Source: Actinomycetota bacterium (GTDB lineage Bacteria > Actinomycetota > Geothermincolia > Geothermincolales > RBG-13-55-18). Taken from it: a stretch of DNA of 64,000 nt. The notes beneath the pieces were generated by a model. It made no database searches. It was given only the letters and a program-made list of their open reading frames with translations, and had not been told where the DNA came from. This document shows positions 35,653 to 57,822 of the stretch, piece by piece (position 1 is the stretch's first letter; the number at the start of each line of letters is the position of its first letter). The translations under genes and the position numbers were made by a program. The stretch spans positions 15,370 through 79,369 of the forward strand of contig JASEFK010000004.1 of NCBI GenBank assembly GCA_030019255.1, read 5' to 3'.

Positions 35653-35690
35653 CGCTCTCCCCTTCTCGGCCAGAATTCGCGCCCGGGTCC

Positions 35691-37153: not shown

Positions 37154-37428
37154 GTGATCGTGCTAGGCGGGGAGCTAGCGGTGCCCTGTACCCGCAATCC
37201 GCTATAGCGGGGCTTAATTCCCAACTGAGGCTCTCCGGTCTTGAGTATGGCGCGCCGGCAAGCGGCGTTGAAGGTCGGGTCCTGCGCAACGGGAACTTGC
37301 GAACCCCGTCAGGTCCGGAAGGAAGCAGCGGTAAGCAAATCTTCCCGGGTGCCGCAGACCAACCTGACCGGAGCAGGCTACCGGCGTAGCGCTCGGGGTC
37401 GGGAGTCGAAGGCGGGTGCACGATCACA
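37154..37428 (+). ncRNA. ffs: Signal recognition particle RNA, large Bacillus-type with an Alu domain
   Basis: The domain IV motif ccGTCAGGTCCGGAAGGAAGCAGCgg lies at 37303-37330. The 5' region GTGCTAGGCGGGGAGCTAGCGGTGCCCTGTACCCGCAATCCGCTATAGCGGGGC is near-identical to B. subtilis scRNA. The 5'/3' terminal pairing is gtgatcgtgc/gcacgatcac. About 275 nt, immediately upstream of dnaX as in Firmicutes. Confidence 0.85.
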
Positions 37429-41747: not shown

Positions 41748-41777
41748 CCTTGAGTGCCTGAACGGGAGGCGGCGGCC

Positions 41778-42785
41778 ATGCGAAGGGAATACCGCGTAGC
41801 CGTGGTGGGAGCCACGGGCATGGTGGGGATGACCATGCGGGAGATCCTAGAGGAGCGGGATTTCCCCGTGTCCGAGCTGCGCCTCCTGGCCTCGGAGCGC
41901 TCCAAGGGAAGGCGCCTCCCTTTCCGGGGCGAGGAGATCGAGGTACAGGTCCTGGACGAAGGCTCCTTCGAGGGCATCGACCTGGCCCTCTTTTCCGCCG
42001 GTGCGGAAATATCACGGCGTTTCGCCCCCCACGCCGTGCGCGCGGGGGCCCTGGTGGTAGACAACAGCAGCGCCTTCCGCATGGATCCCGGGGTTCCCCT
42101 GGTGGTTCCGGAGGTCAATCCCGAGGCGGCCTTCGACCACCAGGGACTCATCGCCAACCCCAACTGCTCCACCATCCAGATGGTGGTGGTGCTCAAGCCC
42201 CTCCACGACCGCTCTCCCCTGCGCCGGGTGGTGGTCTCCACCTACCAGTCGGTGTCCGGGACTGGCAGGGAGGCCGTGGAGGAGCTCCGAACCCAGGCGG
42301 AGGCGGTGCTCAGGGGGGAGGACCCGGTCCCCGTAGTCTATCCCCACCCCATAGCCTTCAACTGCCTGCCCCACATAGACGTCTTCTTCCCCAACGGATA
42401 CACCAAGGAAGAGATGAAGATGGTGGAGGAGACCAGGAAGATCATGGGAATTCCGGACCTCCCCGTATCCGCCACCACGGTGCGCGTACCCGTTTTCGTG
42501 GGCCACTCGGAGTCGGTGAACGCGGAGTTCGAGGACCCCATCCCCCCGGAGGAAGCCAGGCGCATACTGGCCGCGGCGCCGGGGGTGGAGGTCGTCGACG
42601 AGCCCGAGGCCTTCCGCTACCCGCTGGCCATGGACGCCGCCGGAAAGGACTCCTGCTACGTGGGTCGTATCCGGGCCGACCTCTCCTGTCCCCGGGCCCT
42701 CAATTTCTGGGTGGTGGCCGATAACCTGCGCAAGGGCGCCGCCCTCAACGCGGTGCAGATAGCGGAGCTGGTTCTGGAGACCTGA
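41778..42785 (+). CDS. asd: Aspartate-semialdehyde dehydrogenase
   Basis: MRREYRVAVVGATGMVG..., with the ATG at 41778 behind a GGGAGG SD. The active-site Cys region is NPNCSTIQMV. Confidence 0.9.
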   Translation: MRREYRVAVVGATGMVGMTMREILEERDFPVSELRLLASERSKGRRLPFRGEEIEVQVLDEGSFEGIDLALFSAGAEISRRFAPHAVRAGALVVDNSSAFRMDPGVPLVVPEVNPEAAFDHQGLIANPNCSTIQMVVVLKPLHDRSPLRRVVVSTYQSVSGTGREAVEELRTQAEAVLRGEDPVPVVYPHPIAFNCLPHIDVFFPNGYTKEEMKMVEETRKIMGIPDLPVSATTVRVPVFVGHSESVNAEFEDPIPPEEARRILAAAPGVEVVDEPEAFRYPLAMDAAGKDSCYVGRIRADLSCPRALNFWVVADNLRKGAALNAVQIAELVLET

Positions 42786-43856
42786 ATGTCCGGGGAAGAC
42801 CGGGAAGCCGGAAGCCGGGAGGAGGAGGGGCCGAGCTGCCACTGGCATCACCAGCGCCGGGCGGTTGCCCTGTGTGTCTCCTGCGGTCGGGCGGTGTGCG
42901 CCGAGTGCGACCACCTCGCGGGTTACCGGCACCACTGCCCCTTCTGCCTTCCCCGACCGATACCTCAACCGGCGTGGGGGCAAGGCCCCTATGCGCCGCC
43001 TGCCGCTCCGGGGGCCGGCCCGTACGTGCCGCCTCCCTACTACCCGCCGCCCCATCCTCTGCCGGTGCCCCCTCCGGCCTGCTCGCCAACCGGCTACTAC
43101 CTGCCCGCCCCGCCCCTTTCCGCTCCCCCGGTCGCGGAGCCTCCCGAGCCGGAGGACCGCCGGGAACACCGCTGGTGGAGGGCGGACTGGAAGCTCTCCG
43201 AGGTCACCGTGGCCCTCTTCGTCATCTTCGGGATCTATAACCTGGTGGGCGTGGCGCTCCTCCTCACCACCGATAACCCGCTCTTCTACGAGTACCTGTC
43301 CTACGCCCTCTTCTTCTGTCCCCTCATCCTCCTGTGCACGGTCTGGATACTGAAACGCCACGGGAGGGGGCGGGAGGAACTGGGCCTGGTCTGGGGGCGG
43401 CCATGGAAGACGCTGCTCTCTGGCCTGGGCGGCAGCGCGGCGGCCCTGTCCTTGAGCTACGCCGCCTTCTTCGCCCTCTATTTCCTGTTCTACCTCGTCG
43501 CAGGCAGGCCGCCCTCGGCTGGGGAGACGGAGCAGCTTCGGGGTATAGGCGGCGGCGGGCTGGCCCTGGTGATCGCGGTGGTGGTCCTGCTGGCCCCCGT
43601 CTTCGAGGAGATCTTCTTTCGGGGGCTTTTCTACTCCGCCCTGCGCAGGAAGATGGGACCGCGGGCCGCGGTGGCCATAAACGGCCTCATCTTCGGGGCT
43701 TTGCACTTCCAGCCCCTGTACATGATCTCCCTGGTCCTGGTGGGCATGGTCCTGGCCTACCTCTACGAGAAGACCGACTCCCTATACGCCTCTATGACCG
43801 CCCACGCGCTCTACAACCTGGTCGTGGTCCTGATGGCCCTCTTCACCGGTTGGTGA
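42786..43856 (+). CDS. CPBP-family (CAAX/Abi-type) intramembrane protease with an N-terminal B-box-like zinc finger and a Pro-rich linker
   Basis: 356 aa. The N-terminus C-x2-H-x8-C-x2-C-x4-C-x2-C-x9-C-x2-C is followed by a PP-rich linker and about 6 TM. CPBP motifs are EEIFFRG, FGALHF and HALYN. The ATG directly abuts the asd stop. Confidence 0.72.
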   Translation: MSGEDREAGSREEEGPSCHWHHQRRAVALCVSCGRAVCAECDHLAGYRHHCPFCLPRPIPQPAWGQGPYAPPAAPGAGPYVPPPYYPPPHPLPVPPPACSPTGYYLPAPPLSAPPVAEPPEPEDRREHRWWRADWKLSEVTVALFVIFGIYNLVGVALLLTTDNPLFYEYLSYALFFCPLILLCTVWILKRHGRGREELGLVWGRPWKTLLSGLGGSAAALSLSYAAFFALYFLFYLVAGRPPSAGETEQLRGIGGGGLALVIAVVVLLAPVFEEIFFRGLFYSALRRKMGPRAAVAINGLIFGALHFQPLYMISLVLVGMVLAYLYEKTDSLYASMTAHALYNLVVVLMALFTGW

Positions 43857-43985
43857 GGACTGGCACGGGAGGCGGGTCGCGGAACGGAGGGGTGATGGGC
43901 CCGCTCGGTTTCAGGCGCCGGGCTCGCTTGTCGAATAAATCATAGCGGGCCCGCGGGAGCGGGCCCGGAGCAGGAAAGGAAGGAT

Positions 43986-45089
43986 GTGTCCGTGGACGTG
44001 CCGCGCTGCGCCGCGCATCCCGAGGAGCCGGCCGCGGCGTCCTGCCCGGAATGCGGCGGCCATTATTGCTCGCGCTGCCTGCGTCCCATGGGAGGCCGCC
44101 TCCTCTGCCCTTCATGCGCGGAGAGGGCCGTTTACGGGGGCGGCACCCAGGTTTCCGGAGTGGAGGCGCACCGGGCGCCGGAGCGCGGGCCGGTGGCGGC
44201 CAAGATTGTGGCCACCTGCGCCTTCCATCCCGGCGTCAGGGCGGTCACCCGCTGCAGCCGCTGCGGGGCCTTCATCTGCTCCGCCTGCCAGAGGGTAGGC
44301 GGCGATAGGCGTTATTGCGACCATTGTTACCAGGAAATGGTAAATGAGCCCCGGCGCAGGGCGGCGGCGGGCGGGAATGGCGACGCCCTTACCTCCCCCT
44401 CCCGAGCCGCCTGGAGGCTGTGGCCGGGGCTGGCCTTCCTGCCCCTCCCCTTCCTCCTGAGCTGGCTGATGACCTACATGATGCGCCAGGGCGAAGAGGT
44501 CTCCGTGGGGGCCGCCCAGCTGCTTGTAAGCCTTCTGCTCTACTCCTCCACCCTGATCTATACCTTGCTGGTGGTCTCGAGGCACGGGAACGCCCGGGAG
44601 CTGCTGGGAATGCACGGGGATAACCTGGCGGGGGCGCTGGGCCTGGGGGTAATCTGCGGGTCGCTGGCCTTCTGGATAGGGACCGCCGGAAGCTTCATAT
44701 CCGTGGGCCTCCTTGAGCGGGTGAGCTGGGTGGAGGAATGGCTGCGCAGCTTCTTCGACGTCAACGTGAAGAACGTCACCGGCGCGGACCTGCTGGTGGC
44801 CGGGCTGGTGATCATCATCGCCGCTCCCGTCTTCGAGGAGATCTTCTTCCGGGGCTTCCTCTACCCCGCCATGCGGCGGAGGATGGGAGTATGGTCGGCC
44901 TCCCTGCTAAACGGATTCCTCTTCGCCGCGGTGCACTTCAGCCTCTTCGGGCTCCTGGGGAGGACCCTGGTGGGCACCCTCTTCTGTCTCCTCTACGAGT
45001 ACACCGGGAACCTGTGGTCCCCGGTGGCCGCCCACGGCATCAACAACTTCGTGGCCTTCTTCCTGCCCCTGGCGGCCATATGGAGCTGA
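43986..45089 (+). CDS. CPBP-family intramembrane protease paralog with two N-terminal B-box-like zinc fingers
   Basis: 367 aa. Two Zn-finger units (CAAHPEEPAAASCPECGGHYCSRC...CPSC and CAFHPGVRAVTRCSRCGAFICSAC...CDHC), then a TM domain with EEIFFRG, FAAVHF and HGINN. Confidence 0.72.
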   Translation: MSVDVPRCAAHPEEPAAASCPECGGHYCSRCLRPMGGRLLCPSCAERAVYGGGTQVSGVEAHRAPERGPVAAKIVATCAFHPGVRAVTRCSRCGAFICSACQRVGGDRRYCDHCYQEMVNEPRRRAAAGGNGDALTSPSRAAWRLWPGLAFLPLPFLLSWLMTYMMRQGEEVSVGAAQLLVSLLLYSSTLIYTLLVVSRHGNARELLGMHGDNLAGALGLGVICGSLAFWIGTAGSFISVGLLERVSWVEEWLRSFFDVNVKNVTGADLLVAGLVIIIAAPVFEEIFFRGFLYPAMRRRMGVWSASLLNGFLFAAVHFSLFGLLGRTLVGTLFCLLYEYTGNLWSPVAAHGINNFVAFFLPLAAIWS

Positions 45090-45339
45090 GAATGAGCTTT
45101 TCGGATGCGGCGAGCTTACTTGGCATTCACGCCGGGACTTCGCCTGGAGGCCGGCAGGGACCTTGGGGGACGAGGGACTCGGCCCCCGGGAATTTCGGGG
45201 CGTTAATCTGGGTGGAGCGGAGTTCGCCGCATGGGCTCCCAGGGGGCTGGCGGTTGCCGGGGCGCTTAACAAGGGGAGTGGAGGAGTATATGATTATGGG
45301 GGAGAAGACTAATCTTAAAGTTGAACAAGAGGTTTATAT

Positions 45340-47028
45340 ATGATATGCGATAAGTGCGGTACGGAGAATCGTGAGGACGCGGCCTTCTGCGTGGCCTGCG
45401 GCGCAGCCCTCCCAGGCGCCACGTTCTCCTCCCTCCAACCCAGGGATGGGGAAAGGGAAAAACCCGAGGCCGTATCCTTCCCTTCGATTCCGTGGACCCG
45501 GACCTCCTCGCCGCTGGAGGAGGAGAAGCGATTCAAGGATGTGACCGTTACCCGGGACGCTACCGCCCGGAAGCATCCGCAAGCACCCGGCCTTCCGTTC
45601 CCGGAAATGCCGGCGGGGACGACGGAGGCGACCCGGGAAGCGCGGTCCGGAGAAGCCGGGGAAACGCCCCTGCCGGAAATGCCGCCCCAATCGACCGGCG
45701 GCCTGGATTCCCGGGCATCCGCGCAGGAACCCTATCGCGTGGTCTCGCCCGGGGGCTTCGTCTTCAGCACGTCCAGGGCGGCGGCCCATGAGGGCACCGG
45801 GGAAGAGGTTGGCTTCCCGGGAACGGAGCCTGTGACTCCGAGTGCCGCTGCCGGCATGCCCGCGGGAAACTCCGAGAAGGCTCCCGGAGGGGTGGAGGGA
45901 GGAACCCCGGCGCCCGGGGAAACGGCAGTCTGGACTCCCGAGGTTCCCGACCGGGAGGAAGGCGAGGAGGATGGAAGGCTAGTGTACATACCCCCGGAGT
46001 CCGACCTTCCCCTTCGGCGCGGAGGGTCGGATTCCGCCCACGCGGAGTCCCTTCCCTCCTCGGCCCCCGAAGCGGTGCCGCCCGAGGACCGTACCCAGGC
46101 CATGGAGCCGGTGCCCGACGCGGGAAGGGTACACGTCCCCCAGGTGCTCTGTCCGGAGTGTTACGCCCACAACCCGGAGATGAACCGCTTCTGCCAGGAG
46201 TGTGGGAACCCCCTGCCGGCGGCATCCCGGGGGCGGCCGGTGGCCAGGCGACCGATGCCGGCCGGGACCGCCTACCGCCCCACGGCTACCCTTTACCTAC
46301 CGGAGGAGGAGACCGCCGCCGGGATGGAGCACGCACGGGAGGGAGGACGCGGGGAGGTCCGCCGGGAGAAAAGATTCGGGGCTGCGGACGCCCTCGCGAC
46401 GGTCTCGGCGATCGTCCTGGCTGCCTCGCTGGCCCTCCCCACCTTCCTGGAAGGATTTTCCTACAAGAATGGGGTGGACCTGGGCATTTTCTCCCACCAG
46501 GGAGCCTACGTGCGCGGCGCTTACGAGCTGCTCGGCGGGCCGGGTATCCTTCCCTACCGGGGAGTGGAGTTCTTCACCGTGGGCCTGGTCTTCGCCGTGG
46601 CGCTCTTCCTGGCCCTGCTTTTTCTCGTCCTGCGCGTGGGACGGGGGCCCATGTTCATGCTAGCTGGCAGCTTGGCGGCACTTCCCCTGGTCTACCTCTT
46701 CTTCCAGGCCCTGCTGCCGCTGCGGGAGAGGGGGGTGGAGATAGAGCCGGCCTTGGGCCTGGGAAGGCTCTTTTTCGGCGGCGACGGGGCTCCCGGCCTA
46801 GGGCCCGCGGTGTGGATGGGCTGCGCCGCCGCCATACTCCTCATCCTGGCCGGGTTCCTGGCTCCCCCGCGGGGATGGGGGAGGTTGTTCACCTTCCTGG
46901 TCTTTTTCAGCCTGGTCCTGGGAGCCGGTTTCTTCTGCGCCGCCTGCTACAACTGGAACCTTTTCATCTCCGAAGCCGCGGCCGGAACCCCCGCCGCGAC
47001 GGCGCCCCTCCTGGCTGCTTTTCTATGA
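45340..47028 (+). CDS. Double zinc-ribbon protein with a long acidic/Pro-rich disordered linker and a C-terminal polytopic membrane domain
   Basis: 562 aa. MICDKCGTENREDAAFCVACGA and CPECYAHNPEMNRFCQECGN zinc ribbons lie about 260 aa apart. About 6 C-terminal TM. No CPBP motifs. Confidence 0.62.
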   Translation: MICDKCGTENREDAAFCVACGAALPGATFSSLQPRDGEREKPEAVSFPSIPWTRTSSPLEEEKRFKDVTVTRDATARKHPQAPGLPFPEMPAGTTEATREARSGEAGETPLPEMPPQSTGGLDSRASAQEPYRVVSPGGFVFSTSRAAAHEGTGEEVGFPGTEPVTPSAAAGMPAGNSEKAPGGVEGGTPAPGETAVWTPEVPDREEGEEDGRLVYIPPESDLPLRRGGSDSAHAESLPSSAPEAVPPEDRTQAMEPVPDAGRVHVPQVLCPECYAHNPEMNRFCQECGNPLPAASRGRPVARRPMPAGTAYRPTATLYLPEEETAAGMEHAREGGRGEVRREKRFGAADALATVSAIVLAASLALPTFLEGFSYKNGVDLGIFSHQGAYVRGAYELLGGPGILPYRGVEFFTVGLVFAVALFLALLFLVLRVGRGPMFMLAGSLAALPLVYLFFQALLPLRERGVEIEPALGLGRLFFGGDGAPGLGPAVWMGCAAAILLILAGFLAPPRGWGRLFTFLVFFSLVLGAGFFCAACYNWNLFISEAAAGTPAATAPLLAAFL

Positions 47029-47405
47029 ACATCCCGTCACGACGGGCGCATTATGCACCCGAACGGGCAGGTCCTCCCCTCGAGAGCGCGCAAGGCTTCC
47101 CCGCTGGCATGTTCCTTTTCCGGGGAGGATCGAGGGCTCATGTCCTGTCGTGACGAGGCGCACGTAAAGACGCGCGGTGTTTCTGCGGACGTCCCCCGGG
47201 TCCCTCAAGGTGAGGGATCCCCTGTCGGGAACGGCAGGATGTCTTTCCGTAAAGGGGTGAAGAGGAGCCGATCTCGCGACGTGCGGTGCCCCTTTTCGTT
47301 GACGTCCCTTCAGACCCCCGTATATAGTTAGTCTCGCGAATCCTTTCCATAGAAACGCATGAGTTCACGCTGCCGCAAGGGCGAGGCGAGGCCGGAGGGC
47401 GAGGT

Positions 47406-48803
47406 GTGATGCGTAAATCGTTTGGCGCTGCCATGAGGAGACCGATCATCGTTCTTGCGGCGGCCCTGCTTGCGGCCCTGGCGCTGGCGGGATGCTTCGG
47501 GGGAGCCCCGGAGGGGGTGAAGGTGACCGAGGTGAGACGGGGGGACGTGAGCAGGGTGGTCACCGCGGTAGGCAGGCTGGAGGCCGACAACCCCGTCGAC
47601 GTCTACCCTCCCGCCAGCGGGACCATCGCCGCCCTCTACGTGAGGGAGGGGGATCGCGTGGAGGCCGGGGACCTCCTGGCCTCGCTGGACCAGGAGGAGC
47701 TCAAGGCCCAGGCGGCCAAGGCCAGGGCCAGCTACCTCACCGGTGCCGCGGTGGGCGACGTCCTCGCCGGGCAGTACTCGGGCATGCAGGCCCTCTACCA
47801 GGGCGCAGAGTACGCCTTCCAGGTCTTCGGGCAGACCCAGGAACAGCTGGACGCCATGGTCCTCAACCTCTTCGACCTGGTGCCCCTGGTGGTGCCCCTG
47901 CTACCCCCGGACCAGCAGGAGTTCGTCAAGTCCCTCGTCGCCGAGCAGAGGGCGGCCTACCTCGAGGCTATGGCCTCGCGACCCGCACCGCCTTCCCTGG
48001 CGCTGCCCGCTTATCCTTCCGATGCCTTGGCGGCCGGCGAGGCCGTGAAGGAGGCCTCCAGCTACGAATATCAAAAGGCCCTCTACGCCGCCAACCATCC
48101 TCACCTGGTGGCGCCGGTGTCCGGATACGTGGTCTTCTCCGCCCCTCCCTCGGTCCCGGGGCTGGATTTCCTCTCCGAGATGCTGGGAGGCTTCGGTTCG
48201 CTCCTCACCGGCCTGGGGGACCTGACCTCCCTTCTGGGAGGGGACCTGGGGGCCCTTTTGGGGGGACAGGCGGGCGCGGAACTCAAGGTGGGGAGCAAGG
48301 TCAGCGCCGACAGCCCCGTCTTCCAGATCGTGGACCTCCAGAGCATGCGAGTGAGGGCGGAGGTGGAGGAGACGGACATCCCCAAGGTGCAGGTAGGGCA
48401 GAAGGTCAAGGTCTACCTGGACGCCTACCCCGACTTGGCCTTCACCGGGGAGGTGGTGCAGGTGGGCATCCGGGCGGAGCGCGGCTCGGGAGGGACCACC
48501 GTCTTCCCGGTGATCGTCAGGCTGGACCGCACCGAGGTGCCCCTGCGCCTAGGATACAACGCCACCGTGGACATCGAGGTCCTGAGCCGGAAGGGGATAA
48601 TCTCCCTCCCGGTCACCGCCCTTTTCTCCGAGGAGGGGAAGGATTACGTGTATGTGGTGGAGGACGGCAGGGCCGGTAGGCGGGAGGTCACGGCGGGAGA
48701 GCGGAGCGAGGAATGGGTGGAGATCCTAGCCGGGCTGGAGGAGGGAGAGAGGGTGGTCACGGAAGGGGTGGGCCTGGTGAAGGAAGGCCAGAAGGTGGAA
48801 TGA
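47406..48803 (+). CDS. Efflux-type membrane fusion protein (HlyD/RND adaptor family) lipoprotein, orphan
   Basis: 465 aa. Signal plus lipobox LALAGC. Biotinyl-lipoyl-like, coiled-coil and beta-barrel segments. No transporter gene is adjacent. Confidence 0.78.
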   Translation: MMRKSFGAAMRRPIIVLAAALLAALALAGCFGGAPEGVKVTEVRRGDVSRVVTAVGRLEADNPVDVYPPASGTIAALYVREGDRVEAGDLLASLDQEELKAQAAKARASYLTGAAVGDVLAGQYSGMQALYQGAEYAFQVFGQTQEQLDAMVLNLFDLVPLVVPLLPPDQQEFVKSLVAEQRAAYLEAMASRPAPPSLALPAYPSDALAAGEAVKEASSYEYQKALYAANHPHLVAPVSGYVVFSAPPSVPGLDFLSEMLGGFGSLLTGLGDLTSLLGGDLGALLGGQAGAELKVGSKVSADSPVFQIVDLQSMRVRAEVEETDIPKVQVGQKVKVYLDAYPDLAFTGEVVQVGIRAERGSGGTTVFPVIVRLDRTEVPLRLGYNATVDIEVLSRKGIISLPVTALFSEEGKDYVYVVEDGRAGRREVTAGERSEEWVEILAGLEEGERVVTEGVGLVKEGQKVE

Positions 48804-48824
48804 GCCCCTCCGGAGTGCCGGCGC

Positions 48825-51119
48825 ATGGATTTTGAGGAACTGATCCGGGAGATAAGCGAGGGCTGGGGGGAGGGTCACCGGGTCGCCCACCTGGAGGTCA
48901 TACCCTCCCGTGAGCCCCGGCTCACCGAGCTCCCGGATGGACTACACCCCTCCCTGGTGGAAACCCTCGGGCGCATGGGCATCACCGGCCTCTACCTCCA
49001 CCAGGCCCGTGCCCTGGAGCTCCTTTCCCGGGGACACAACGTGGTCATCGCCACCGGGACCGCCAGCGGGAAGAGCTTCTGCTACCACATACCGGTCTAC
49101 CAGGAGCTCATGGAAAACCCTTCCAGTAGGGCCCTGTACATCTTTCCCACCAAGGCGCTGGCCCAGGACCAGCTGCGCAGCCTGGAGGAGCTGTACGGGG
49201 GTGAGGTGGTCTCGGCCACCTACGACGGCGACACGCCGTTGGAACTGCGGAGCTGGATAAGGCGCCAGGCCCAGGTAGTGCTCACCAACCCGGACATGCT
49301 CCATTACGGCATACTACCCAACCACAGGCTATGGGGCGGATTCTTCCGCCGCCTCCGTTACGTGGTCCTAGACGAGGCTCACGTGGCCCGCGGCGTCTTC
49401 GGCTCACACGTGGCCCAGGTGCTACGGCGTCTGCGGCGCACGGCGGAGCGCTACGGCTCGCGGCCCGTGTTCGTCTTCGCCAGCGCCACCATCGCCAACC
49501 CGGCGGAACACGCCTCCAAGCTCTGCGGGCTGGAGGTGAAGGCGGTGGAGGATGACTCCTCTCCGCGAGGGAGGAAGGTATTCGCCCTCTGGAACCCCCC
49601 AGACATCCTGTCCCGGGAGGGCGGGGAAATCCACCGTTCCTCCAATCTGGAGACGGCGGAGATACTGGCCCGGTTAATTCGGCTGGGGGTGCGCACCATC
49701 GCCTTCTGTCGCTCCCGCAAGGCGGCAGAGCTGGTCTACGGCTATGTGCTGCGCCTGTTGGGTTCGGAGGAGAGGAAACTCGCGGAGAGAATTTCCCCTT
49801 ACCGGGGAGGCTATCTGCCTGCGGAGAGGAGGGAGATAGAGCGTCGTCTTTTCTCCGGGGAACTTCTGGCGGTGACCACCACCAATGCCCTGGAGCTGGG
49901 GGTGGACATCGGGGAACTGGAGGCCTGTCTCATGAACGGCTATCCGGGGACCATCGCCAGCACCTGGCAGCAGGCCGGGAGGGCGGGGCGCCGGCAGGGG
50001 GAATCGCTGGCCGTGCTGGTGGCCGCCGACGATCCGCTGGACCAGTACCTGGTCCGCCACCCGGAGTTCCTCTTCGGCTCACCCTGCGAGGAGGCGGTCA
50101 TCGACCTGGAGAACCGGCGCATACTGGGCGACCACCTGGTATGCGCGGCCTACGAGTTCCCCCTGCGGGAGGAGGACGAGGAGTACTTCGGGCCCGCCAT
50201 GCGGGAGATTCTCGAGGAGCTGTCCCGCGAGGGACGGCTGAAGAAAAGGGGCGGGAGGTGGTACTTCGCGGGGCCGGGCTCCCCGGCCCAGGAGGTGAAC
50301 CTGCGGTCCGCCTCCGGGAAGCTCATCAGCATCGTGGACCGGGACACCGGGACCCTGCTGGGGACCGTGGAGGAGGCTTCCTGTTTTTTCCATGTGCATC
50401 CCGGGGCCGTCTACCTGCACCAGGGCGATTCCTACCTGGTGGAGGAGCTGGACCTGGAGCGCATGGTGGCCCTGGTGAGGGCCGAGGAGCTTGACTTTTA
50501 CACCAACCCCATGGACAACACCGACGTCGTGGTCCTGGAGGAGGAACGGGCGAAGGCCCCGGGACCGCGGGCGTGTTCCCTCCACTACGGGGAGGTGGAG
50601 GTCTCGGTCAAGGTGTACGCATACCAGAAGCGGCGGCTCCTCACCCACGAGGTCCTGGAGACCCTGGGGCTGGACTTGCCCACCCGTACCCTGCGGACCA
50701 GGGCCCTGTGGTACACCTTGCCGCCCGAGCGCCTGGCTCCCCTGGAGATGGACGAGTACACCTTGGCTGGGGGGCTGCACGCCCTGGAGCACGCCTCCAT
50801 CGCCATGCTCCCCCTCTTCGCCATGTGTGATCGCTGGGACATAGGGGGCATGTCCACGGCCTTCCACCCGGATACCGGCCGGGCCACGGTCTTCATCTAC
50901 GACGCCTACCCGGGCGGGGTAGGCATCGCCGCCCGGGGGTTCCGCCTGGCGACGCGGCACCTGAGGGCCACCCGCGAGATGGTGGAGAGATGCCCATGCG
51001 CCGAGGGCTGCCCCTCGTGCATCCAGTCCCCCAAGTGCGGGAGCGGCAACGAGCCCCTGCACAAGCGGGCGGCGGCGGAGCTCCTCAAGTTGCTCGAGGA
51101 AGATCTCGCCGCGGAATGA
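48825..51119 (+). CDS. DEAD/DEAH-box helicase with a C-terminal DUF1998 zinc domain (MrfA/YprA-like)
   Basis: 764 aa. Walker A ATGTASGKS, DEAH, the helicase C domain, and the C-terminal CPCAEGCPSCIQSPKCGSGN. Confidence 0.85.
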   Translation: MDFEELIREISEGWGEGHRVAHLEVIPSREPRLTELPDGLHPSLVETLGRMGITGLYLHQARALELLSRGHNVVIATGTASGKSFCYHIPVYQELMENPSSRALYIFPTKALAQDQLRSLEELYGGEVVSATYDGDTPLELRSWIRRQAQVVLTNPDMLHYGILPNHRLWGGFFRRLRYVVLDEAHVARGVFGSHVAQVLRRLRRTAERYGSRPVFVFASATIANPAEHASKLCGLEVKAVEDDSSPRGRKVFALWNPPDILSREGGEIHRSSNLETAEILARLIRLGVRTIAFCRSRKAAELVYGYVLRLLGSEERKLAERISPYRGGYLPAERREIERRLFSGELLAVTTTNALELGVDIGELEACLMNGYPGTIASTWQQAGRAGRRQGESLAVLVAADDPLDQYLVRHPEFLFGSPCEEAVIDLENRRILGDHLVCAAYEFPLREEDEEYFGPAMREILEELSREGRLKKRGGRWYFAGPGSPAQEVNLRSASGKLISIVDRDTGTLLGTVEEASCFFHVHPGAVYLHQGDSYLVEELDLERMVALVRAEELDFYTNPMDNTDVVVLEEERAKAPGPRACSLHYGEVEVSVKVYAYQKRRLLTHEVLETLGLDLPTRTLRTRALWYTLPPERLAPLEMDEYTLAGGLHALEHASIAMLPLFAMCDRWDIGGMSTAFHPDTGRATVFIYDAYPGGVGIAARGFRLATRHLRATREMVERCPCAEGCPSCIQSPKCGSGNEPLHKRAAAELLKLLEEDLAAE

Positions 51120-51772
51120 AACTTCAGCCCTGGCGAGGCGGGGTATGATCAGGGCCTCCACCATGGACTCGTGCCGGCTGCCGTCGCCCAGGTTCATATG
51201 GTATTTTATGGTAATTATTACCGGGCTGTCACGCACGCATCATCGGTGCCGTCCTTCGGGACGTGGGGATTAGCGTGTTTGGTAATATATGGCGGAAATC
51301 ACTGCTCGAGAAGGGAAGCCTTGTTCCCGGTCCGGTCGGCGAGTGTGGTTCCCCAGCTTCCGATTTTGGTCCTGCCAAAAACTCCAGTCCTGGAGCCTAA
51401 TAATCGACGCCGTGGCGTCCGATAAAAAGAGCGGGAGAGGGAGACCGAGGCGATGGTCAACCTTCCAAAAGAGGTGGTGTGCGAGAGTTTTGACCACGGC
51501 TCTCCCTCATCCCTGTTTTTTGCCGGCGGGTATTCACGCATTAGAATTGCTTCGGTGCCATTCGGTGTAGCGCTGACCCCAGGAACCAAGGTTTCCTTAA
51601 CCCTGGGTTTCGTCGCTGGAATGACGCCGCTGCGGACAAGATGCCGCCACGTGGATGAGCATGCTCTCACGGGCGGTAATGAAATGCACAAAGCCATTCG
51701 TGTCATGGGTGCATTATTTTATCGAAATAATCATTGTGTATAATGTCGCAAGTACCTTGTTATAATCTCCGT

Positions 51773-52480
51773 ATGAATGAAGGGAAGAGCGCTGCCGAGC
51801 TCGGCCGCCGGGAGCGCAAGAAGAGGCAGACCCGCGAGGCGCTGGAGAGGACCGCCCTGCGCCTTTTCCGGGAGAAGGGCTACGACCGCACCACCATCAG
51901 GGACATCACCGAGGAAGTGGACGTCTCCCAGCGCACCTTTTTCCGCTATTTCCCCTCCAAGGAGGCGGTGCTCTTCGGGAACTGGGAGGAGAGCCTGGAG
52001 CTGCTGCGGCGGCTCATCCTGGAAAGGCCGCGAGAGGAGCCGGTTTTCGTCGCCCTCTACCAGGCGGCCCTGAAGCTCGCCGAGGCGGACCGGGAGAACG
52101 AGGAGTGGCTGGTGATGGTCAAGGAACTGGCGGAAAGGTCCCGCCGCATCGGCGAGTTCGAGCGCAACGTCATCTACCCCGGTTTCGAGAGGGTGGTGGC
52201 CGAGGCCCTGGCGGAACGCATGGGGGTAGACCCGGCGAAGGACCCCCGCCCCAGGATGCTGGCCGCGGTCTCCGTGGCCGCCTGGACCACGGCGCGCCGC
52301 ATGTGGATGGAGAGCGGAGGAAAACAGTCCGTATCCGGCATCCTCTCCCGGACTTTCGGCTCCCTCGTGGAAACGTTGCCCGGGACCGGCGGGGCAGAAG
52401 GGAGCCGGGCGGCGGAGGGTTCCGGGACCCGGAAGGCAGGAAACCGCAGGACCGGTTCCTCCCGGAAGAAAAGGTCTTGA
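51773..52480 (+). CDS. TetR/AcrR-family transcriptional regulator
   Basis: The N-terminal HTH RTTIRDITEEVDVSQRTFFRYFPSKE is typical of TetR proteins. The ATG at 51773 lies 6-7 nt downstream of a TATAAT at 51761-51766, so the mRNA may be leaderless. Confidence 0.8.
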   Translation: MNEGKSAAELGRRERKKRQTREALERTALRLFREKGYDRTTIRDITEEVDVSQRTFFRYFPSKEAVLFGNWEESLELLRRLILERPREEPVFVALYQAALKLAEADRENEEWLVMVKELAERSRRIGEFERNVIYPGFERVVAEALAERMGVDPAKDPRPRMLAAVSVAAWTTARRMWMESGGKQSVSGILSRTFGSLVETLPGTGGAEGSRAAEGSGTRKAGNRRTGSSRKKRS

Positions 52481-52514: not shown

Positions 52515-53105
52515 TCAGCGGAGGTCGTCCAGAACCTCCCTCACCGCGTCCAGGATGGGGGTCCGGATTCGCGGCGGGATTTTCCTCAGGTAATCCAGCG
52601 CTTTTTCCTTTACCTCCGGGCGCAGGCCCCTCAGGTAGGCGAGGACGTTTTCCGGGGTCAGGTCCCGACGGGTGCGCCTCTCGAAGTCCGGGCGGAGGTC
52701 GTTCCAGATCACCACCCGGAGCTCGTGCCCCTCCCGGTTCTTCTCCTCCGCCCAGCGCCGGATGTCCGGGAGGCACTCGTCCACCGTCCGGCACCAGTGC
52801 TCACCGGTGGCCAGGTCCAGAAAACCGACGTTTTCCGGTTTGCACTCCGCCCTCTGGGCCAGGCTCCATACCGCTTCGCCCACGCTGTCCGTCCCCATGA
52901 GGGACCAGTAGACCTGGACCGGCGTTGAGCCCCTCCGGAGGGAGAGGGCCAGGTACCTCTGGGGAGCCACGCGGGAGAGCTCCACAGGCAGGACGGGTCC
53001 ATCCCCCAACCACCGCCCGTCGCGAAGCATGAGCCCCTCCGGCTCCGTGACCATGGGGTCCCATCCCAGGACCGCTATCTCCGCCAAGCTTCCCACCTCC
53101 CGCAC
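52515..53105 (-). CDS. Hypothetical protein
   Basis: 196 aa, GTG start. No family recognised by eye. The start region is tandemly duplicated (see findings). Confidence 0.45.
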   Translation of the reverse strand: MREVGSLAEIAVLGWDPMVTEPEGLMLRDGRWLGDGPVLPVELSRVAPQRYLALSLRRGSTPVQVYWSLMGTDSVGEAVWSLAQRAECKPENVGFLDLATGEHWCRTVDECLPDIRRWAEEKNREGHELRVVIWNDLRPDFERRTRRDLTPENVLAYLRGLRPEVKEKALDYLRKIPPRIRTPILDAVREVLDDLR

Positions 53106-53530: not shown

Positions 53531-54820
53531 ATGAGGTTTTCCTGGGAGTACGGGCGCGGAATACAGGAGTTCGAGGTCCCCGATGACCTCCTCCTCGGCG
53601 TGGTGGAGGGGACGGCCGTGGAGCCCCTCCTCGACCTCCGGCGCGCCCTGGAGGAGGCCCTGGAAAATCCCCTGGGATCCCCTCCCCTGTCGGAACTGGT
53701 GCGCAGCGGGGACCGGGTGGCCGTGGCCTGCCCCGACTTCCACCGCCTGTGGGTGCGCGCCCGGTTGTGGATGCCCCTCCTGGTGGGGTACCTTAACCGC
53801 TGCGGGGTGCGCGACCGGGACATCACGGTGATCATCGCCAACGGGACCCACGCTCCGCCCGGCTACCGGGGGCTGAGGATGATCCTGGGGGAAGACTTCC
53901 CTCCCGGTGTCCGGGTGGTGAACCACGATGCCCGCGACGAGGGTAGCCTTCGCTTCCTGGGGCACACCCCCTACGGCACTCCCCTGTGGGTAAACCGCCA
54001 CGCCCTGGAGGCCGACCACCTCATACTCACCGGGGCCGTGGTGCCCCACACCTTCGCCGGCTTCGGAGGGGGCCGCAAGGCGGTGGTGCCGGGCATGGCG
54101 GGGATAAAGACCATCCTGGCCAACCACCGCCGGGCCCTGAGCGAGGTGCCGGGTGGGGGCATCCATCCGAGGGCGGTCCCCGGGGTCCTGGACGGCAACC
54201 CGGTCCACGAGGACATGCTGGCCGCGGCGCGGATGGTGGGGCCACGCTTCATCGTCAACTTCGTGCTCAGCGAGGAGGGCGACTTTTTGGGGGTCTTTGC
54301 CGGGGACCTGGAGGAGGCCCATCGGGGCGGATGCGCCTTCGTCGAGGAGGCCTTTCGGGTGGAAATTCCTTCCAGGGCGGACATCGTGGTCGCTTCCCGG
54401 GGAGGGTATCCCATGGACCTCACCTTCTACCAGGCCTTCCAGTCCAACGCCAACGCCCGCGCCGCCCTGCGCGAGGACGGGCGGGGGGTCCTGATCATGG
54501 TGGGGGAGTGCTCGGAGGGCCTGGGCCCCTACGAGTTCCAGCGCTGGTTCCACATGGGAGGACTGGAGGAGATGGAGGCGGAACTGCGCCGCGCCTTCAC
54601 CGTCCCCGGTTTCGTGGTCTACCGGGCGGCGCTGCTGGCCCGCCAGGCGGAGAAGGTGATGCTGGTCTCCAGGCTGGATCCCGAGGTGGTGAAAGGGATA
54701 GGCGTTATCCCCCATACGAGCATCCGCGAGGCGCTCGAGGAGGCTCTGGACACCGTGCCTGGGGGAAGGGTGCTCCTCATGCCCCACGCCTCCCAGACCA
54801 TCCCCTCACCGGCCTGCTGA
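53531..54820 (+). CDS. larA: LarA-family nickel-pincer-cofactor-dependent racemase/epimerase (DUF2088)
   Basis: 429 aa. ...ITVIIANGTHAPPG... and the overall LarA architecture. Confidence 0.8.
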   Translation: MRFSWEYGRGIQEFEVPDDLLLGVVEGTAVEPLLDLRRALEEALENPLGSPPLSELVRSGDRVAVACPDFHRLWVRARLWMPLLVGYLNRCGVRDRDITVIIANGTHAPPGYRGLRMILGEDFPPGVRVVNHDARDEGSLRFLGHTPYGTPLWVNRHALEADHLILTGAVVPHTFAGFGGGRKAVVPGMAGIKTILANHRRALSEVPGGGIHPRAVPGVLDGNPVHEDMLAAARMVGPRFIVNFVLSEEGDFLGVFAGDLEEAHRGGCAFVEEAFRVEIPSRADIVVASRGGYPMDLTFYQAFQSNANARAALREDGRGVLIMVGECSEGLGPYEFQRWFHMGGLEEMEAELRRAFTVPGFVVYRAALLARQAEKVMLVSRLDPEVVKGIGVIPHTSIREALEEALDTVPGGRVLLMPHASQTIPSPAC

Positions 54821-54966
54821 GCCGCGCCGTTTTCCGGGGCACCCCGGACCCGGCACGACCCCCGCTAACGACGTAAGCCATTCCATATCCAGGGGGGTCT
54901 CCGGAAGCGGTCAAGCCCTACGGGCTCCCTTCCCCACTGGCGTCCAGGAAAGGCTCCGGACTTTAT

Positions 54967-55431
54967 TCAGCGCTCCGGGCCCAGGATGGCCTCCACCGCC
55001 TCCTCGGGGCTTGAGGCGCGCTGGAGCTTGTCGTCCGGCACGCCCCTCCGGGCGATGTCCCAGCTGGAGATGGCCACTACCCTTTTCCCCATCTTTAGGG
55101 CCATGGCGATCTCGGAGAGGGTTCCGTATTCGCCTCCCACGGCGATAACCGCATCCACGGTACGCACGATGACCGCGTTGCGCGCCTGTCCCATGTCCGT
55201 GGCGATGGCATAGTCCACGTAGGGGTTGGCGTCGCCCCGGAAGGGGCCGGGGAGGATCCCTATGGTCACGCCGCCCTCCTCCTTGGCCCCCTTGCAGGAG
55301 GCCTCCATCACCCCGCCCAGGCCGCCGCAGACCAGGACGGCGCCCCTGCGGGCCAGCAGGCGGCCCACCTCGTAGGCCAGCCGGGCCTCCTCCTCGCTGC
55401 AGAATTGTCCGCCCACCACTCCCACGTACAC
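54967..55431 (-). CDS. TIGR00725/LOG-family Rossmann-fold protein
   Basis: 154 aa from the GTG at 55431 behind a GGGAGG SD. VYVGVVGG...VCGGLGGVMEA... It is the C-terminal frame of the listed 600-aa ORF. Confidence 0.65.
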   Translation of the reverse strand: MYVGVVGGQFCSEEEARLAYEVGRLLARRGAVLVCGGLGGVMEASCKGAKEEGGVTIGILPGPFRGDANPYVDYAIATDMGQARNAVIVRTVDAVIAVGGEYGTLSEIAMALKMGKRVVAISSWDIARRGVPDDKLQRASSPEEAVEAILGPER

Positions 55432-55493
55432 TCTCAGACCTCCCGAAACGAACCGGATTTTCCCTTCGCCGCGGGCACCCGGCCCGCCGGCTC

Positions 55494-56717
55494 TTACCAG
55501 TAATCTCCTTGAGGCCGATCCCCGCTTCCCACCCCTTCGCCAGAAAGCAGGTCGCGGGCCGCCTCCTCGGCGGCGGCGTAGACCTCCTTGAGGGGCACGC
55601 CGGACCGCAGGGCCGCCCGCCGACAGTCCTCGTACTCCGGGGCCACGTTCAGGGGCCGGCCCTCGTGGCGGGCCACCTTCACCCGCACGGGCCCGTAGTC
55701 CGTGCTCACCTCCAGCACCTCCCGGTCCAGGTACTCCTTGTCCACCTCCTCGATGCGTATCCCCAGGGTCTTGGTCTCGGCGAAGATGACCTCCTTTATC
55801 TCCTCCTCGCGGGAGGGCGGGGCGAGCACGGAGATGGTCACCGCGGGGCGCGATTTCTTCACCTGGATGGGGGAGAGCCAGACGTCCTCGGCCCCGGCCT
55901 CGAAGAGCCTCTCCATGACGTAGGGGTAGATCTCCGGGTTCATGTCGTCGATGTTGGCGGAAAAGACCATCCTTCTCTCGCGGGTTCTGCCCCGCGCGAC
56001 CAACTCTCTCTCCCCCAGGAAGCCCCGCAGGACGTTGGGTATCTCCAGGTCGCGGTCCCCCGCCCCGTAGCCCACGGCCTGGATGCGCATGGGGGGCAGG
56101 AGGCAGAAGTCGGAGGCCAAAGCGGCCACGATGGCCGCGCCGGTGGGGGTGACGATCTCGGTGGGGATGCCGCTGGAGTACACGGGCACGTCCCTCAGGA
56201 TCTCGGTGACCGCGGGGGCTGGCACCGGGTATACGCCGTGGCTGGTCTTGATCATACCCGTGCCCATGGGGAGGGGGGAGCAAAGGAGCTCCTCCACCTC
56301 CAGGTGCTCCAGGCAGGCCACCGAGCCTACCACGTCCACCAGGGTGTCGGCGCTTCCCAGTTCGTGGAAATGGACCTGTTCGATGTTTCTCGAGTGGATG
56401 CGGCTCTCCGCCTCCGCCAGGAGGGCGAACACCCTCTGGCTCCTCTCCTTGACCTGCGGGGAGAGGTTGCTCCGGTCGATGAGCTCCCTGATGTGGGCGT
56501 AGGTCCTGACCACCTCTCTCTCCAGGACCCTCACATGGACCTTGGTGGCCCCGATGCCCTTGCGCTCGGTGCGGGTGGCGGTGATGTTCGCCTCGCTGAG
56601 GCCCAGGCGCGACGCGGTGTCCTGCAGGAGGTCGAGAGGAGCCCCGAGGTCCACCAGCACGCCCAGCATCATGTCCCCGCTGATGCCGGCGAAGGCGTCC
56701 AGGTAGAGGGTCTTCAA
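55494..56717 (-). CDS. larC: LarC, nickel insertion protein for the pincer cofactor (DUF111)
   Basis: 407 aa. MKTLYLDAFAGISGDMMLGVLVDLG is the canonical LarC/DUF111 N-terminus. Confidence 0.85.
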   Translation of the reverse strand: MKTLYLDAFAGISGDMMLGVLVDLGAPLDLLQDTASRLGLSEANITATRTERKGIGATKVHVRVLEREVVRTYAHIRELIDRSNLSPQVKERSQRVFALLAEAESRIHSRNIEQVHFHELGSADTLVDVVGSVACLEHLEVEELLCSPLPMGTGMIKTSHGVYPVPAPAVTEILRDVPVYSSGIPTEIVTPTGAAIVAALASDFCLLPPMRIQAVGYGAGDRDLEIPNVLRGFLGERELVARGRTRERRMVFSANIDDMNPEIYPYVMERLFEAGAEDVWLSPIQVKKSRPAVTISVLAPPSREEEIKEVIFAETKTLGIRIEEVDKEYLDREVLEVSTDYGPVRVKVARHEGRPLNVAPEYEDCRRAALRSGVPLKEVYAAAEEAARDLLSGEGVGSGDRPQGDYW

Positions 56718-56937
56718 GCCGCCACTCCTTCGAATCGCCCGGAATCCACCCCTCTCGAGCGGTTTTCACCCTTACTCCCGACGGCCCTCTTCACCCGATA
56801 CTCGATAAACGGGCTTGCGCCTACCTACCCCGCTCGAGCGCTTGCCGCCTTTTTATCCCTTCAACATCGATCATATCACCCTGCAGGGAATATTATCCGC
56901 TTCCACGCCCGCAAGATCGGATTCCCGCACGCCTCCC

Positions 56938-57822
56938 TCACCGTGCCCGGCATGCAAAGGACGTGATGTCGCCTTCTCCTTCTTGGAAGAGGGTGAGAAC
57001 CTTCCGCTCCGGCGCCTCCTGGTCCATGCTCCCGCTGCGGTAGCCCTCCAGGTCCAGGTCCGCACGCCGGAAACCCAGTTCCCGGAGCCTTCCCGCCACC
57101 ACCTCGCGGTTCTCCCCGTGGATGAGGGAGGCAGTCTCCTCCCCTCCGGCTTCGATGCGGGCCCACTCCGGCCCCTCCAGGCGCACCCGGAGCTCGCGCC
57201 ACCCCAGGCCTTCCAGAAACTCCTCGGCGGCGTCAACCCTGCGGATAGCCTCCGGGTCCAGCCGCGCCCCGTAGGGGAAGCGGGTGGCCAGGCAGGGGCG
57301 GGAAGGAGCGTCCCAGTTGGGAAGCCCCAGTTCACGGGCCAGCTCGCGGACGTTCCGCTTGGTGAAACCGGCTTCCTCGAGGGGGCTGAGGCAGCCTTCC
57401 TCCCGGGCCGCCCTCCTGCCGGGACGATACATCGAGGCGTCGTCCCGGTTTCCGCCGTCCAGCACCGCCTCCAGGCCATGCGCGGCGGCCAGGCCGCGCA
57501 GGAGAACCAGGCGGTGCTTCTTGCAACGGTAGCAGCGGTCCAGCGGGTTGTCGGAAAACCCCTCCAGGGAGAGCTCGTCGCACTCGGTGACCTTTAAGGG
57601 GAAGCCCAGCTCCCCGGAGAGGCGTATGGCGCGGCTTATCTCCCGTGGGGGCATGAGGGGGGAGGAGACCAGAACCGCCAGCATGCGGTCGCCGAGAACC
57701 TTCCAGGCCAGGTAGGAGAGCAGGGTGGAATCCACGCCCCCCGAGTAGGCGACGGCAGCGGAGGGAAGGGTATCCAGGATTTCCCATAAACGCCGCTGCT
57801 TGTCTTTCAGCTCCTCATCCAT
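56938..57822 (-). CDS. larE: LarE, ATP-dependent sacrificial sulfur transferase (PP-loop ATPase)
   Basis: PP-loop SGGVDS. The ATG at 57822 (MDEELKDKQRRLWEIL) is internal to the listed ORF 56938-57876. Confidence 0.85.
   Translation of the reverse strand: MDEELKDKQRRLWEILDTLPSAAVAYSGGVDSTLLSYLAWKVLGDRMLAVLVSSPLMPPREISRAIRLSGELGFPLKVTECDELSLEGFSDNPLDRCYRCKKHRLVLLRGLAAAHGLEAVLDGGNRDDASMYRPGRRAAREEGCLSPLEEAGFTKRNVRELARELGLPNWDAPSRPCLATRFPYGARLDPEAIRRVDAAEEFLEGLGWRELRVRLEGPEWARIEAGGEETASLIHGENREVVAGRLRELGFRRADLDLEGYRSGSMDQEAPERKVLTLFQEGEGDITSFACRAR

Follow-up and report, generated by a model that had tools for sequence, protein, structure and literature searches.

In monoderm bacteria, pumps of the MacB type that work with membrane-fusion proteins (MFPs) export peptide toxins and antimicrobial peptides, as described for YknWXYZ (PMC4887032) and Spr0693-0695 (PMC5768738). 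Among YprA homologues, those that carry a winged helix-turn-helix and have neither fused nor adjacent nucleases are assigned to the non-defence “YprA-only/MrfAB” branches, and helicases of the family are also met with in defence systems (PMC12458937). Genes for relatives of both, an MFP lipoprotein and a YprA-type helicase, follow one another in the stretch of DNA analysed here, a window of 64,000 nucleotides (nt) from an actinomycetotal genome, in which positions 42786-51119 also encode two CPBP intramembrane proteases with zinc fingers (CPBP1 and CPBP2) and a protein with two zinc ribbons and five transmembrane (TM) segments (the Zn-ribbon-5TM protein). To our knowledge, CPBP/Abi proteases are abundant in bacteria, and substrates or partners are known for only a handful of them. 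A first-pass annotation, made from the sequence alone, took the five genes for one set; our findings that the helicase is adjacent in the window's clade only and that the MFP elsewhere leads an ABC ATPase and a MacB/FtsX permease speak against this. Judged by comparative sequence analysis, 42786-51119 is a composite and not one five-gene system.

The five genes themselves are real, and their coordinates and domains are confirmed (Table 1): all five open reading frames (ORFs) show coding-type GC3 (0.79-0.88; genome 65% GC), and hidden Markov model searches bore out the domain calls (PF02517, B-box for CPBP2, zinc ribbons, HlyD_D23, DUF1998). Proteins identical or near-identical to those of the window occur in metagenome-assembled genomes (MAGs) labelled Actinomycetota or Candidatus Solincola sp., Solincola being a member of the class Candidatus Geothermincolia. 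We compared fifteen related loci from Geothermincolia-class MAGs, ordered by neighbour-joining (NJ) trees of asd, the MFP and the CPBP domain. Clade A (the window, L001, L003 from Ca. Solincola sediminis, L004/5 and L010) has the order asd, one-finger CPBP1, two-finger CPBP2, Zn-ribbon-5TM, MFP, helicase, larA; clades B and D (L006, L011, L096 and the GC-48% L093) read asd, CPBP1, finger-CPBP2, Zn-ribbon-5TM, MarR (seen in L006, L093 and L096), MFP, ABC ATPase, MacB_PCD-FtsX; and clade C (L012-L014 and L090-L092) reads ask, asd, one-finger CPBP, MFP, ABC, FtsX, with the MFP alone in L012 and L090 and without the Zn-ribbon protein at the locus. In all clades compared, asd upstream and the order from CPBP to MFP are kept, and this holds even in clade C, where an inversion has carried dnaX-ybaB-recR to the other side of the block; the downstream flank is a different one per clade (helicase-larA, murJ(-), recR(-) or transposase, pfkB(-), HisK(-)). 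These comparisons suggest a conserved unit of ask-asd, finger-CPBP(s), (Zn-ribbon-5TM), (MarR) and MFP-(ABC-FtsX), brackets marking the parts that come and go. Since the helicase is confined to clade A, the pump follows the MFP elsewhere and the downstream flank changes from clade to clade, the five genes of the window do not appear to form a set.

Both CPBPs are, by motif, predicted to be catalytically intact proteases. They match the Rce1-like family PF02517 at 85.3 (CPBP1) and 79.7 bits (CPBP2; cutoff 22.4) and have complete EExxxR, FxxxH and HxxxN motifs, the residues of which are invariant across the aligned orthologues of CPBP1 (E274, E275, R279, H307, H340, N344) and in 22 homologues of CPBP2 with 38-78% identity (E284, E285, R289, H317, H350, N354). 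They had been called tandem paralogues, each with fingers of the B-box pattern, and so they are, with membrane domains 33% identical over 178 amino acids (aa; E 3e-24) and one finger in CPBP1 as opposed to two in CPBP2; the Pro-rich linker claimed for both is present in CPBP1 and not in CPBP2, the linkers of which are not notably Pro-rich in the window genome and vary freely among homologues. The tree of the CPBP domain places CPBP1 in the CPBP1 orthogroup and puts the duplication before the split of clades A, B and D. Hydropathy gives about 7 TM segments for CPBP1, and the AlphaFold2 model of CPBP2 (mean predicted local distance difference test score, pLDDT, 78) has a membrane domain of 7-8 helices after the fingers. 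Searched by fold, this model finds SpdC in the SagB-SpdC complex (6U0O_A) as its top PDB match, which is weak (E 0.11, prob 0.8), as is the profile match of the CPBP to MmRce1 (4CAD; E 0.007). The best NCBIfam model for both CPBP domains is NF041647, an ABC transporter permease/CPBP fusion (E 5e-26 and 3e-19), with an alignment that spans the whole CPBP portion and scores (91.6 and 69.4 bits) that are far under the 435-bit cutoff. Equivalogs of the myxosortase type were not reached (MrtJ 45.9 bits, cutoff 75; MrtS 40.2, cutoff 130; Mrt_core 25.1, cutoff 100; MrtP 21.7, cutoff 250), and these matches are limited to the generic catalytic core.

What sets the two proteases apart is their N-terminus, where every family member examined, barring the CPBP1 orthologue of one clade, has the common pattern C-x2-H-x8-C-x2-C-x4-C-x2-C-x9-C-x2-C. 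Invariance extends to all 16 of the 16 Cys/His ligands of CPBP2 in the 22 homologues and to all eight of CPBP1 in the orthologue alignment; with ligands and catalytic residues alike invariant across homologues, these features are not chance. CPBP2 matches ANCHR-like_BBOX PF22586 (30.5 bits, cutoff 27) and zf-B_box PF00643 (26.2 bits, cutoff 24.1) in two stretches each, the best Pfam B-box stretch (aa 76-104) falling on finger 2, the most conserved part of its N-terminus. The CPBP1 finger finds no Pfam match at E<0.1 and aligns with both CPBP2 fingers (with finger 2 at E 7e-8); we count it as B-box-like because it is homologous to them and has the same ligand pattern. In the AlphaFold2 model, the CPBP2 fingers each form a beta-hairpin plus helix (pLDDT 76-91), which solved B-boxes match weakly (TRIM21 at E 0.002, MID1; range E 0.002-0.2) and LIM domains match about equally well in the fold search. 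Together, these data are consistent with putative two-zinc, B-box-like modules. That they are probably cytoplasmic, as first proposed, we infer from the absence of a signal peptide and from their eight thiol/imidazole ligands, and the positive-inside rule fits an N-in topology of the CPBPs.

About 60-100 clusters were retrieved when single sequences or a profile built from divergent single-finger members served as queries, all of them from Geothermincolia-like MAGs; the CPBPs that scored next (Omnitrophota, Nitrospirota, others) carry no fingers, their N-termini being unrelated. The fusion of finger and CPBP does recur in other genomes, which the first-pass annotation had made a requirement of its proposal, though it appears to be restricted to Geothermincolia. 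Some annotated homologues of about 300 aa seem to lack the first finger or to be finger-less; at least in Ca. Solincola sediminis, this goes back to a miscalled start codon, and both fingers are present when translation begins at an upstream ATG. Among the homologues, one already bears the automatic annotation “B-box zinc finger protein”.

The MFP matches TIGR01730 RND_mfp at 165 bits (cutoff 94.9) as well as HlyD_D23, HlyD_3 and Biotin_lipoyl_2, and the lipobox LAGC closes its signal peptide (…LALAGC), the Cys being aa 30. Barrel and C-terminal domains of the YknX type are found in orthologues, and among solved structures the MFP is closest to MacA. It had been described as an orphan lipoprotein with no pump nearby, and indeed neither an ABC ATPase nor an FtsX homologue was detected throughout the 64-kb window (tblastn; Pfam of neighbours). 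Rather than free-standing, however, the “orphan” appears to be left over from an operon for a MacB-type exporter under MarR control. The orthologous MFP gene is followed by ABC_tran and MacB_PCD/FtsX genes in L011, L014, L091, L092, L093 and L096, and at the position of the Zn-ribbon-MFP spacer, L006, L093 and L096 have a MarR gene, of which no remnant was found in the 377-nt spacer of the window. The orphan status would therefore reflect loss of MarR, ATPase and permease from the locus in the Solincola clade. There, the MFP has stayed intact in all clade A loci (50-57% identity within the clade). In clade C, the pump genes are missing beside an intact MFP in L012 and L090, and since these two do not group together in the MFP tree, adaptor-only remnants seem to have arisen more than once in the class. 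Kept intact long after the pump genes left, the MFP must presumably serve a partner pump elsewhere or something else.

For the protein encoded between CPBP2 and the MFP, the two ribbons and the acidic disordered linker described at first pass hold, whereas the C-terminal TM count of six is to be corrected to five by hydropathy and AlphaFold2. The linker between the ribbons is rich in P, E, A and G with a net charge of -18, and the motif CPECYAxNxxxNxxCQECG of ribbon 2 is nearly invariant in the family. Invariant motifs of the 5-TM loops are HQG...LLGGPGxLPYxGxEF on the outside and GRGP and APPRGWGR on the inside. TM5 ends in an invariant FFCAA[C/S/A]YNWNLFI (window 46930-46970, aa about 531-543), behind which there is a variable tail of about 20 aa; a Cys-Ala-Ala string encoded beside CAAX-type proteases is suggestive, but its position is internal and, by prediction, within the membrane, which makes any link speculative. 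Searching 25 family members against Pfam at E<=10 gave no Yip1 or other match in the 5-TM domain, and its fold has no PDB counterpart at E<1. A word-indexed search returned 47 clusters, from this lineage only, and an exhaustive search of 1.84 billion representative proteins with the 5-TM profile gave 25 clusters (E<1e-30) and then noise, all 25 sharing the layout ribbon-linker-ribbon-5TM. The family thus appears to be lineage-only and without detectable relatives. An identity as a YknW/Yip1-like accessory subunit was rejected for want of a Pfam, PDB fold or outside profile match.

That the last gene encodes a DEAH helicase with a DUF1998 zinc domain proved correct. The protein passes TIGR03817 (982.5 bits, cutoff 874.1), matches PF09369 (88 bits) and PF22982 (63 bits), has VLDEAH in its translation and the domain order DEAD, Helicase_C, WHD_HRQ1, MZB/DUF1998, and aligns over its full length with B. 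subtilis YprA/MrfA (6ZNP, E 2.7e-184). We take it to be a housekeeping DNA-repair helicase of the YprA/MrfA type and, by the comparison of loci, probably an incidental neighbour in clade A: it adjoins the MFP there, and the loci of clades B, C and D lack it. A gene for an MrfB-type DEDDh exonuclease is not adjacent, TetR, a 196-aa ORF and larA lying downstream. Proximity of a CPBP to a helicase gene in two other MAGs, one of Thermoleophilia (L081) and one of Anaerolineae (L040), was considered as independent recurrence and treated as chance, since in L081, the one looked at closely, the finger is lacking and two genes of opposite orientation separate CPBP and helicase.

Further downstream in the window, a TetR gene with an MftR-like C-terminal domain (51734-52480, +) and the 196-aa ORF (52515-53105, -; no Pfam or PADLOC match) lie between helicase and larA in this genome only; larA directly follows the helicase in the relatives L001, L003 and L004. 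Positions 53531-57876 hold a nickel-pincer cofactor (lactate racemase-type) set of larA(+), a LOG/lysine-decarboxylase-like ORF, larC (Ni_insertion, -) and a larE-like ATP-pyrophosphatase(-), kept beside the helicase in clade A. An element of about 100 nt at 51425-51525 (+) is predicted to fold into a long, multi-branched hairpin followed by a U-tract (minimum free energy -40.6 kcal/mol, z = -3.07). In Ca. Solincola sediminis, the spacer between helicase and larA (L003 16347-16419) matches it with 81% identity over 74 nt. The element is not alignable in L001/L004, has no Rfam match and could be a terminator or an unclassified leader RNA.

The junctions between the genes differ in kind. The asd stop abuts the CPBP1 start (TGAATG; junction ctGGAGaccTGAATG) with GGAG 7 nt upstream, the same 0-nt junction is found in L001 and L004, and CPBP1 is most likely co-translated with asd. 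Up to the MFP, the other spacers of the window are 129, 250 and 377 nt long (35-415 nt in relatives), and promoter-like sites, which like the junctions are consensus-level indications only, lie 46 nt upstream of the Zn-ribbon gene and in the spacer before the MFP. A perfect 9-bp G-C hairpin (CGGGCCCGC-TCCC-GCGGGCCCG) directly precedes the ribosome-binding site of CPBP2; the relatives compared do not share it, and it may possibly be a transcript-processing or attenuation element. No riboswitch or known RNA was found in the spacers by an Rfam scan of 42.7-53.6 kb. With asd-CPBP1 coupling, promoter-like sites and, in relatives, MarR, the genes seem to belong at least in part to separate transcription units, an arrangement which at first pass had been named as incompatible with a set.

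As for the wider setting, the window also encodes gyrA, gyrB, recF, dnaN, dnaA, yidC and rsmG. In this region, GC falls to about 0.50, with a turn of the cumulative GC skew near 8-10 kb, and the probable place of oriC is around 11.5-13 kb. The genes studied are located about 30-40 kb from it in the core chromosome, not in an island, and are preceded in the window by SRP RNA, dnaX, ybaB, recR, ask and asd. Upstream of dnaX, 23257-36896 contain a complete chemotaxis cluster (two methyl-accepting chemotaxis proteins, cheW, cheY, cheB, cheA, cheC/X), which is notable for an actinobacterial lineage (compare PMC10746217), together with a peptidoglycan amidase, a multi-PAS histidine kinase and a KaiC-like ATPase.

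Table 1. Features of the locus and of its surroundings (positions are those of the 64-kb window).
Feature	Position	Strand	Basis and remarks
CPBP1, 356 aa, Rce1-like glutamic-type intramembrane protease (predicted), one N-terminal finger, Pro-rich linker	42786..43856	+	PF02517
CPBP1 finger, aa 18-54	42837..42947	+	C18 H21 C30 C33 C38 C41 C51 C54; 8-ligand, B-box-like
CPBP1 Pro-rich linker, aa 55-125	42948..43160	+	Translation; low complexity, length variable among orthologues
Perfect 9-bp G-C hairpin	43946..43967	.	Terminator scan; CPBP1-CPBP2 spacer
CPBP2, 367 aa, paralogous CPBP protease (predicted), two N-terminal B-box-like fingers	43986..45089	+	PF02517, PF22586, PF00643
CPBP2 finger 1, aa 8-44	44007..44117	+	C8 H11 C20 C23 C28 C31 C41 C44
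CPBP2 finger 2, aa 78-114	44217..44327	+	C78 H81 C90 C93 C98 C101 C111 C114
Promoter-like site TTAACA-17-TATGAT	45266..45294	+	Sigma-70-like consensus scan, 10/12
Zn-ribbon/disordered linker/Zn-ribbon/5-TM protein, 562 aa	45340..47028	+	Zn_Ribbon_1 and DZR Pfam; lineage-restricted
Zinc ribbon 1, aa 3-24	45346..45411	+	PF13240
Zinc ribbon 2, aa 271-293	46150..46218	+	PF12773
5-TM domain, aa 348-538	46381..46953	+	AlphaFold2 helices, pTM 0.71; hydropathy, positive-inside
Promoter-like site TTGACG-18-TATAGT	47299..47328	+	Consensus scan; 377-nt spacer before MFP
MacA/YknX-type membrane-fusion lipoprotein, 465 aa	47406..48803	+	TIGR01730, lipobox; stranded without ABC pump
YprA/MrfA/SftH-type SF2 DEAH helicase, 764 aa, WHD + MZB (DUF1998)	48825..51119	+	TIGR03817; neighbour, not block member
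asd (aspartate-semialdehyde dehydrogenase)	41754..42785	+	ORF; Semialdhyde_dh Pfam domains in orthologues; upstream anchor of block
Replication-origin region	2738-17686		gyrA(-), gyrB(-), recF(-), dnaN(-), dnaA(-) 10129-11463, then yidC(+), rsmG/gidB(+)
SRP RNA, large bacterial type	37158-37423	+	218.7 bits; directly upstream of dnaX
tRNA	62353-62437	+	RNA search

Our favoured reading, which we hold at about even odds (a probability of roughly 0.5), sees the region as a composite of a finger-CPBP/Zn-ribbon membrane group, a stranded MFP and a neighbouring helicase, with a module for envelope or peptide handling that is linked to an exporter of the MacB type. One part would be Geothermincolia-specific membrane genes directly downstream of ask-asd, namely two anciently duplicated finger-CPBPs and the Zn-ribbon-5TM protein; another would be the lipoprotein adaptor left after MarR, ATPase and permease were deleted from the Solincola locus, the helicase having become the next gene through rearrangement of the pump locus. 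The finger-CPBPs may be envisaged to act at the cytoplasmic membrane face on a membrane-embedded or peptide substrate, cleaving or binding it, with the fingers as modules for protein-protein docking or oligomerisation and the Zn-ribbon protein with its tethered ribbons as a possible partner. Their activity could be tied to the neighbouring MacB-type exporter, much as CPBP/Abi proteins and ABC-permease-CPBP fusions figure in peptide and toxin handling and envelope maintenance, and the Solincola adaptor would then work with a pump encoded elsewhere. Envelope or peptide handling tied to such an exporter is our best guess as to the function of the module. Several of our own findings weigh against it. 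Matches to NF041647, MrtJ and MrtS all stay far below their cutoffs; the 5-TM domain, lacking any detectable relative, offers no functional handle; CPBP1 is coupled to asd and not to the other membrane genes; the remaining spacers are long, variable and unconserved in sequence and hold promoter-like sites; and pump genes have been lost beside the MFP at least twice (clade A; L012/L090), which is unexpected under tight coupling of CPBP and pump. Besides, gene order from the kaiC-like gene to larA is collinear in close relatives at a distance of 30-40 kb from oriC, so adjacency may be inherited order, and synteny in a region this close to the origin is weak evidence of coupling.

The last two points lead to a plainer scenario, in which functionally unrelated genes are neighbours because an origin-proximal core rarely rearranges in a small, slowly sampled lineage. 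In keeping with it, clade A is collinear from the kaiC-like gene through dnaX, recR, ask and asd to larA/larC, the window holds dnaA-dnaN-recF-gyrBA, the spacers are as described above, the MFP-pump genes have a MarR regulator of their own in relatives, and pump genes were lost while the CPBPs stayed. What inherited order alone does not readily account for is that the succession from asd and CPBP to MFP outlasts both the dnaX-recR inversion and complete downstream turnover across four clades that range in GC from 48% to 67% and whose asd is only 64-70% identical, that CPBP2 is always beside the Zn-ribbon-5TM gene where both exist, and that the junctions in L093 are very tight (a 4-nt overlap, then gaps of 19-92 nt). 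To our minds, pure synteny is less likely than the favoured reading but a serious alternative. We regard as unlikely a pump-independent adaptor-protease complex, in which the MFP would have been retained as partner of the finger-CPBPs and/or the Zn-ribbon-5TM protein, the latter being a substrate or regulator of the proteases through its invariant extracytoplasmic loop and the TM5 Cys-Ala-Ala, and the whole a signalling or envelope-remodelling device not described before, with the fingers as cytoplasmic output or input. A regulated-proteolysis model akin to anti-sigma systems, which the first-pass annotation had brought up as an analogy, would have the fingers or tethered ribbons sequester a transcription factor until CPBP cleavage of the anchor frees it. 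The layout of cytoplasmic Zn domain, long disordered tether and membrane anchor would suit this, as would intact active-site residues, the invariant Cys-Ala-Ala (FFCAAxYNWNLFI) encoded beside CAAX-type proteases and the fact that the Zn-ribbon protein's appearance coincides with two CPBP paralogues. However, the HxxxCxxC ZAS motif is absent, no sigma-factor or other partner gene is found in the block, in clades A-D or among the window neighbours, the CAA lies about 25 residues before the C-terminus within a predicted TM helix on the outer side and is no CAAX terminus, and the clade C locus encodes a finger-CPBP but no Zn-ribbon protein; the analogy misses the features that define such systems, and the model strikes us as quite improbable.

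Slimmer still, in our view, are the chances that the CPBPs trim C-terminal sorting domains of exported proteins encoded elsewhere, in the manner of myxosortase MrtP or of MrtJ/MrtS. Myxosortases are CPBP family members (PMC11980579) and there are partial NCBIfam matches to MrtJ, MrtS, Mrt_core and MrtP; these, however, stay well under the cutoffs and cover the generic catalytic core only, no candidate substrate with a C-terminal sorting signal is encoded in the locus, and known Mrt proteases do not have cytoplasmic fingers. Least credible of all is the original view that CPBPs, Zn-ribbon protein, MFP and helicase act together as one system, for example an immunity or defence island, which is largely refuted by comparative context. 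All five genes do share a strand, the gap between MFP and helicase is a mere 21 nt in the window with GGAG before the helicase start, and YprA-family helicases are known in defence systems (PMC12458937). Yet this gap grows to 150-415 nt in other clade A genomes (L001, L003, L004) and the helicase is missing from the locus in the remaining three clades, it passes a housekeeping equivalog (TIGR03817) and matches MrfA end to end, and the published split of YprA helicases separates defence clades from “YprA-only/MrfAB” branches (PMC12458937). PADLOC returned partial core matches only for the helicase (126 bits or less; DruE, SngC and BrxH models) and none for the CPBPs, the Zn-ribbon protein, the MFP, TetR or the 196-aa ORF, which leaves the immunity role suggested for the membrane proteins without a match, and the locus is core chromosome rather than island.

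Protease, adaptor and helicase thus belong to known families, and the novelty lies in the fusion of a B-box-like finger to a CPBP and in the tiny Zn-ribbon-5TM family that goes with it. In the literature searched we found no description of finger-CPBP fusions or bacterial membrane B-boxes, nor of the Zn-ribbon-5TM family. Finger-bearing CPBPs may give a defined handle on how such proteases are recruited or regulated, the fingers being usable as bait. The locus also illustrates how a membrane-fusion protein that looks like an “orphan” can be left over from a MacB operon that was dismantled, and it raises the question of what an adaptor does once its pump genes have left. Practical value is limited by an uncultured lineage, tiny families and a linkage that could be positional only.

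Compared with described systems, the helicase is like YprA/MrfA and M. smegmatis SftH in full-length similarity and domain order; it differs from MrfAB in that no MrfB exonuclease gene is adjacent and in that its link to membrane genes is confined to clade A. As for the exporter, relatives of the window share the order MFP, ABC ATPase, MacB_PCD/FtsX with YknWXYZ of B. subtilis and Spr0693-0695 of S. pneumoniae, and a gene for a small multi-TM protein sits just upstream of the MFP gene as yknW does (PMC4887032), a parallel that is positional only, since the upstream membrane protein is not a Yip1/YknW homologue; the window itself lacks ATPase, permease and MarR. NF041647 fusions likewise link a CPBP to an ABC exporter, here through neighbourhood rather than a fused permease, and the pump next to the CPBPs in relatives, absent at the window locus, is of the MacB/FtsX type with an MFP. 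With the B-boxes of eukaryotic TRIM, MID1 and ANCHR proteins, the CPBP fingers share eight Cys/His ligands and the C-x2-H ... C-x2-C spacing; unlike them, they use Cys for all ligands except one, close with C-x2-C instead of H-x2-H and are tethered to a bacterial membrane protease. With the CPBP/Rce1-like family (S. aureus SpdC/LyrA, MroQ, Abi bacteriocin immunity proteins, MmRce1), finally, the two proteases have the EExxxR/FxxxH/HxxxN core and the multi-TM scaffold in common, and they keep the catalytic residues, unlike SpdC, and add to this scaffold an N-terminal, presumably cytoplasmic extension with one or two 8-ligand B-box-like fingers.

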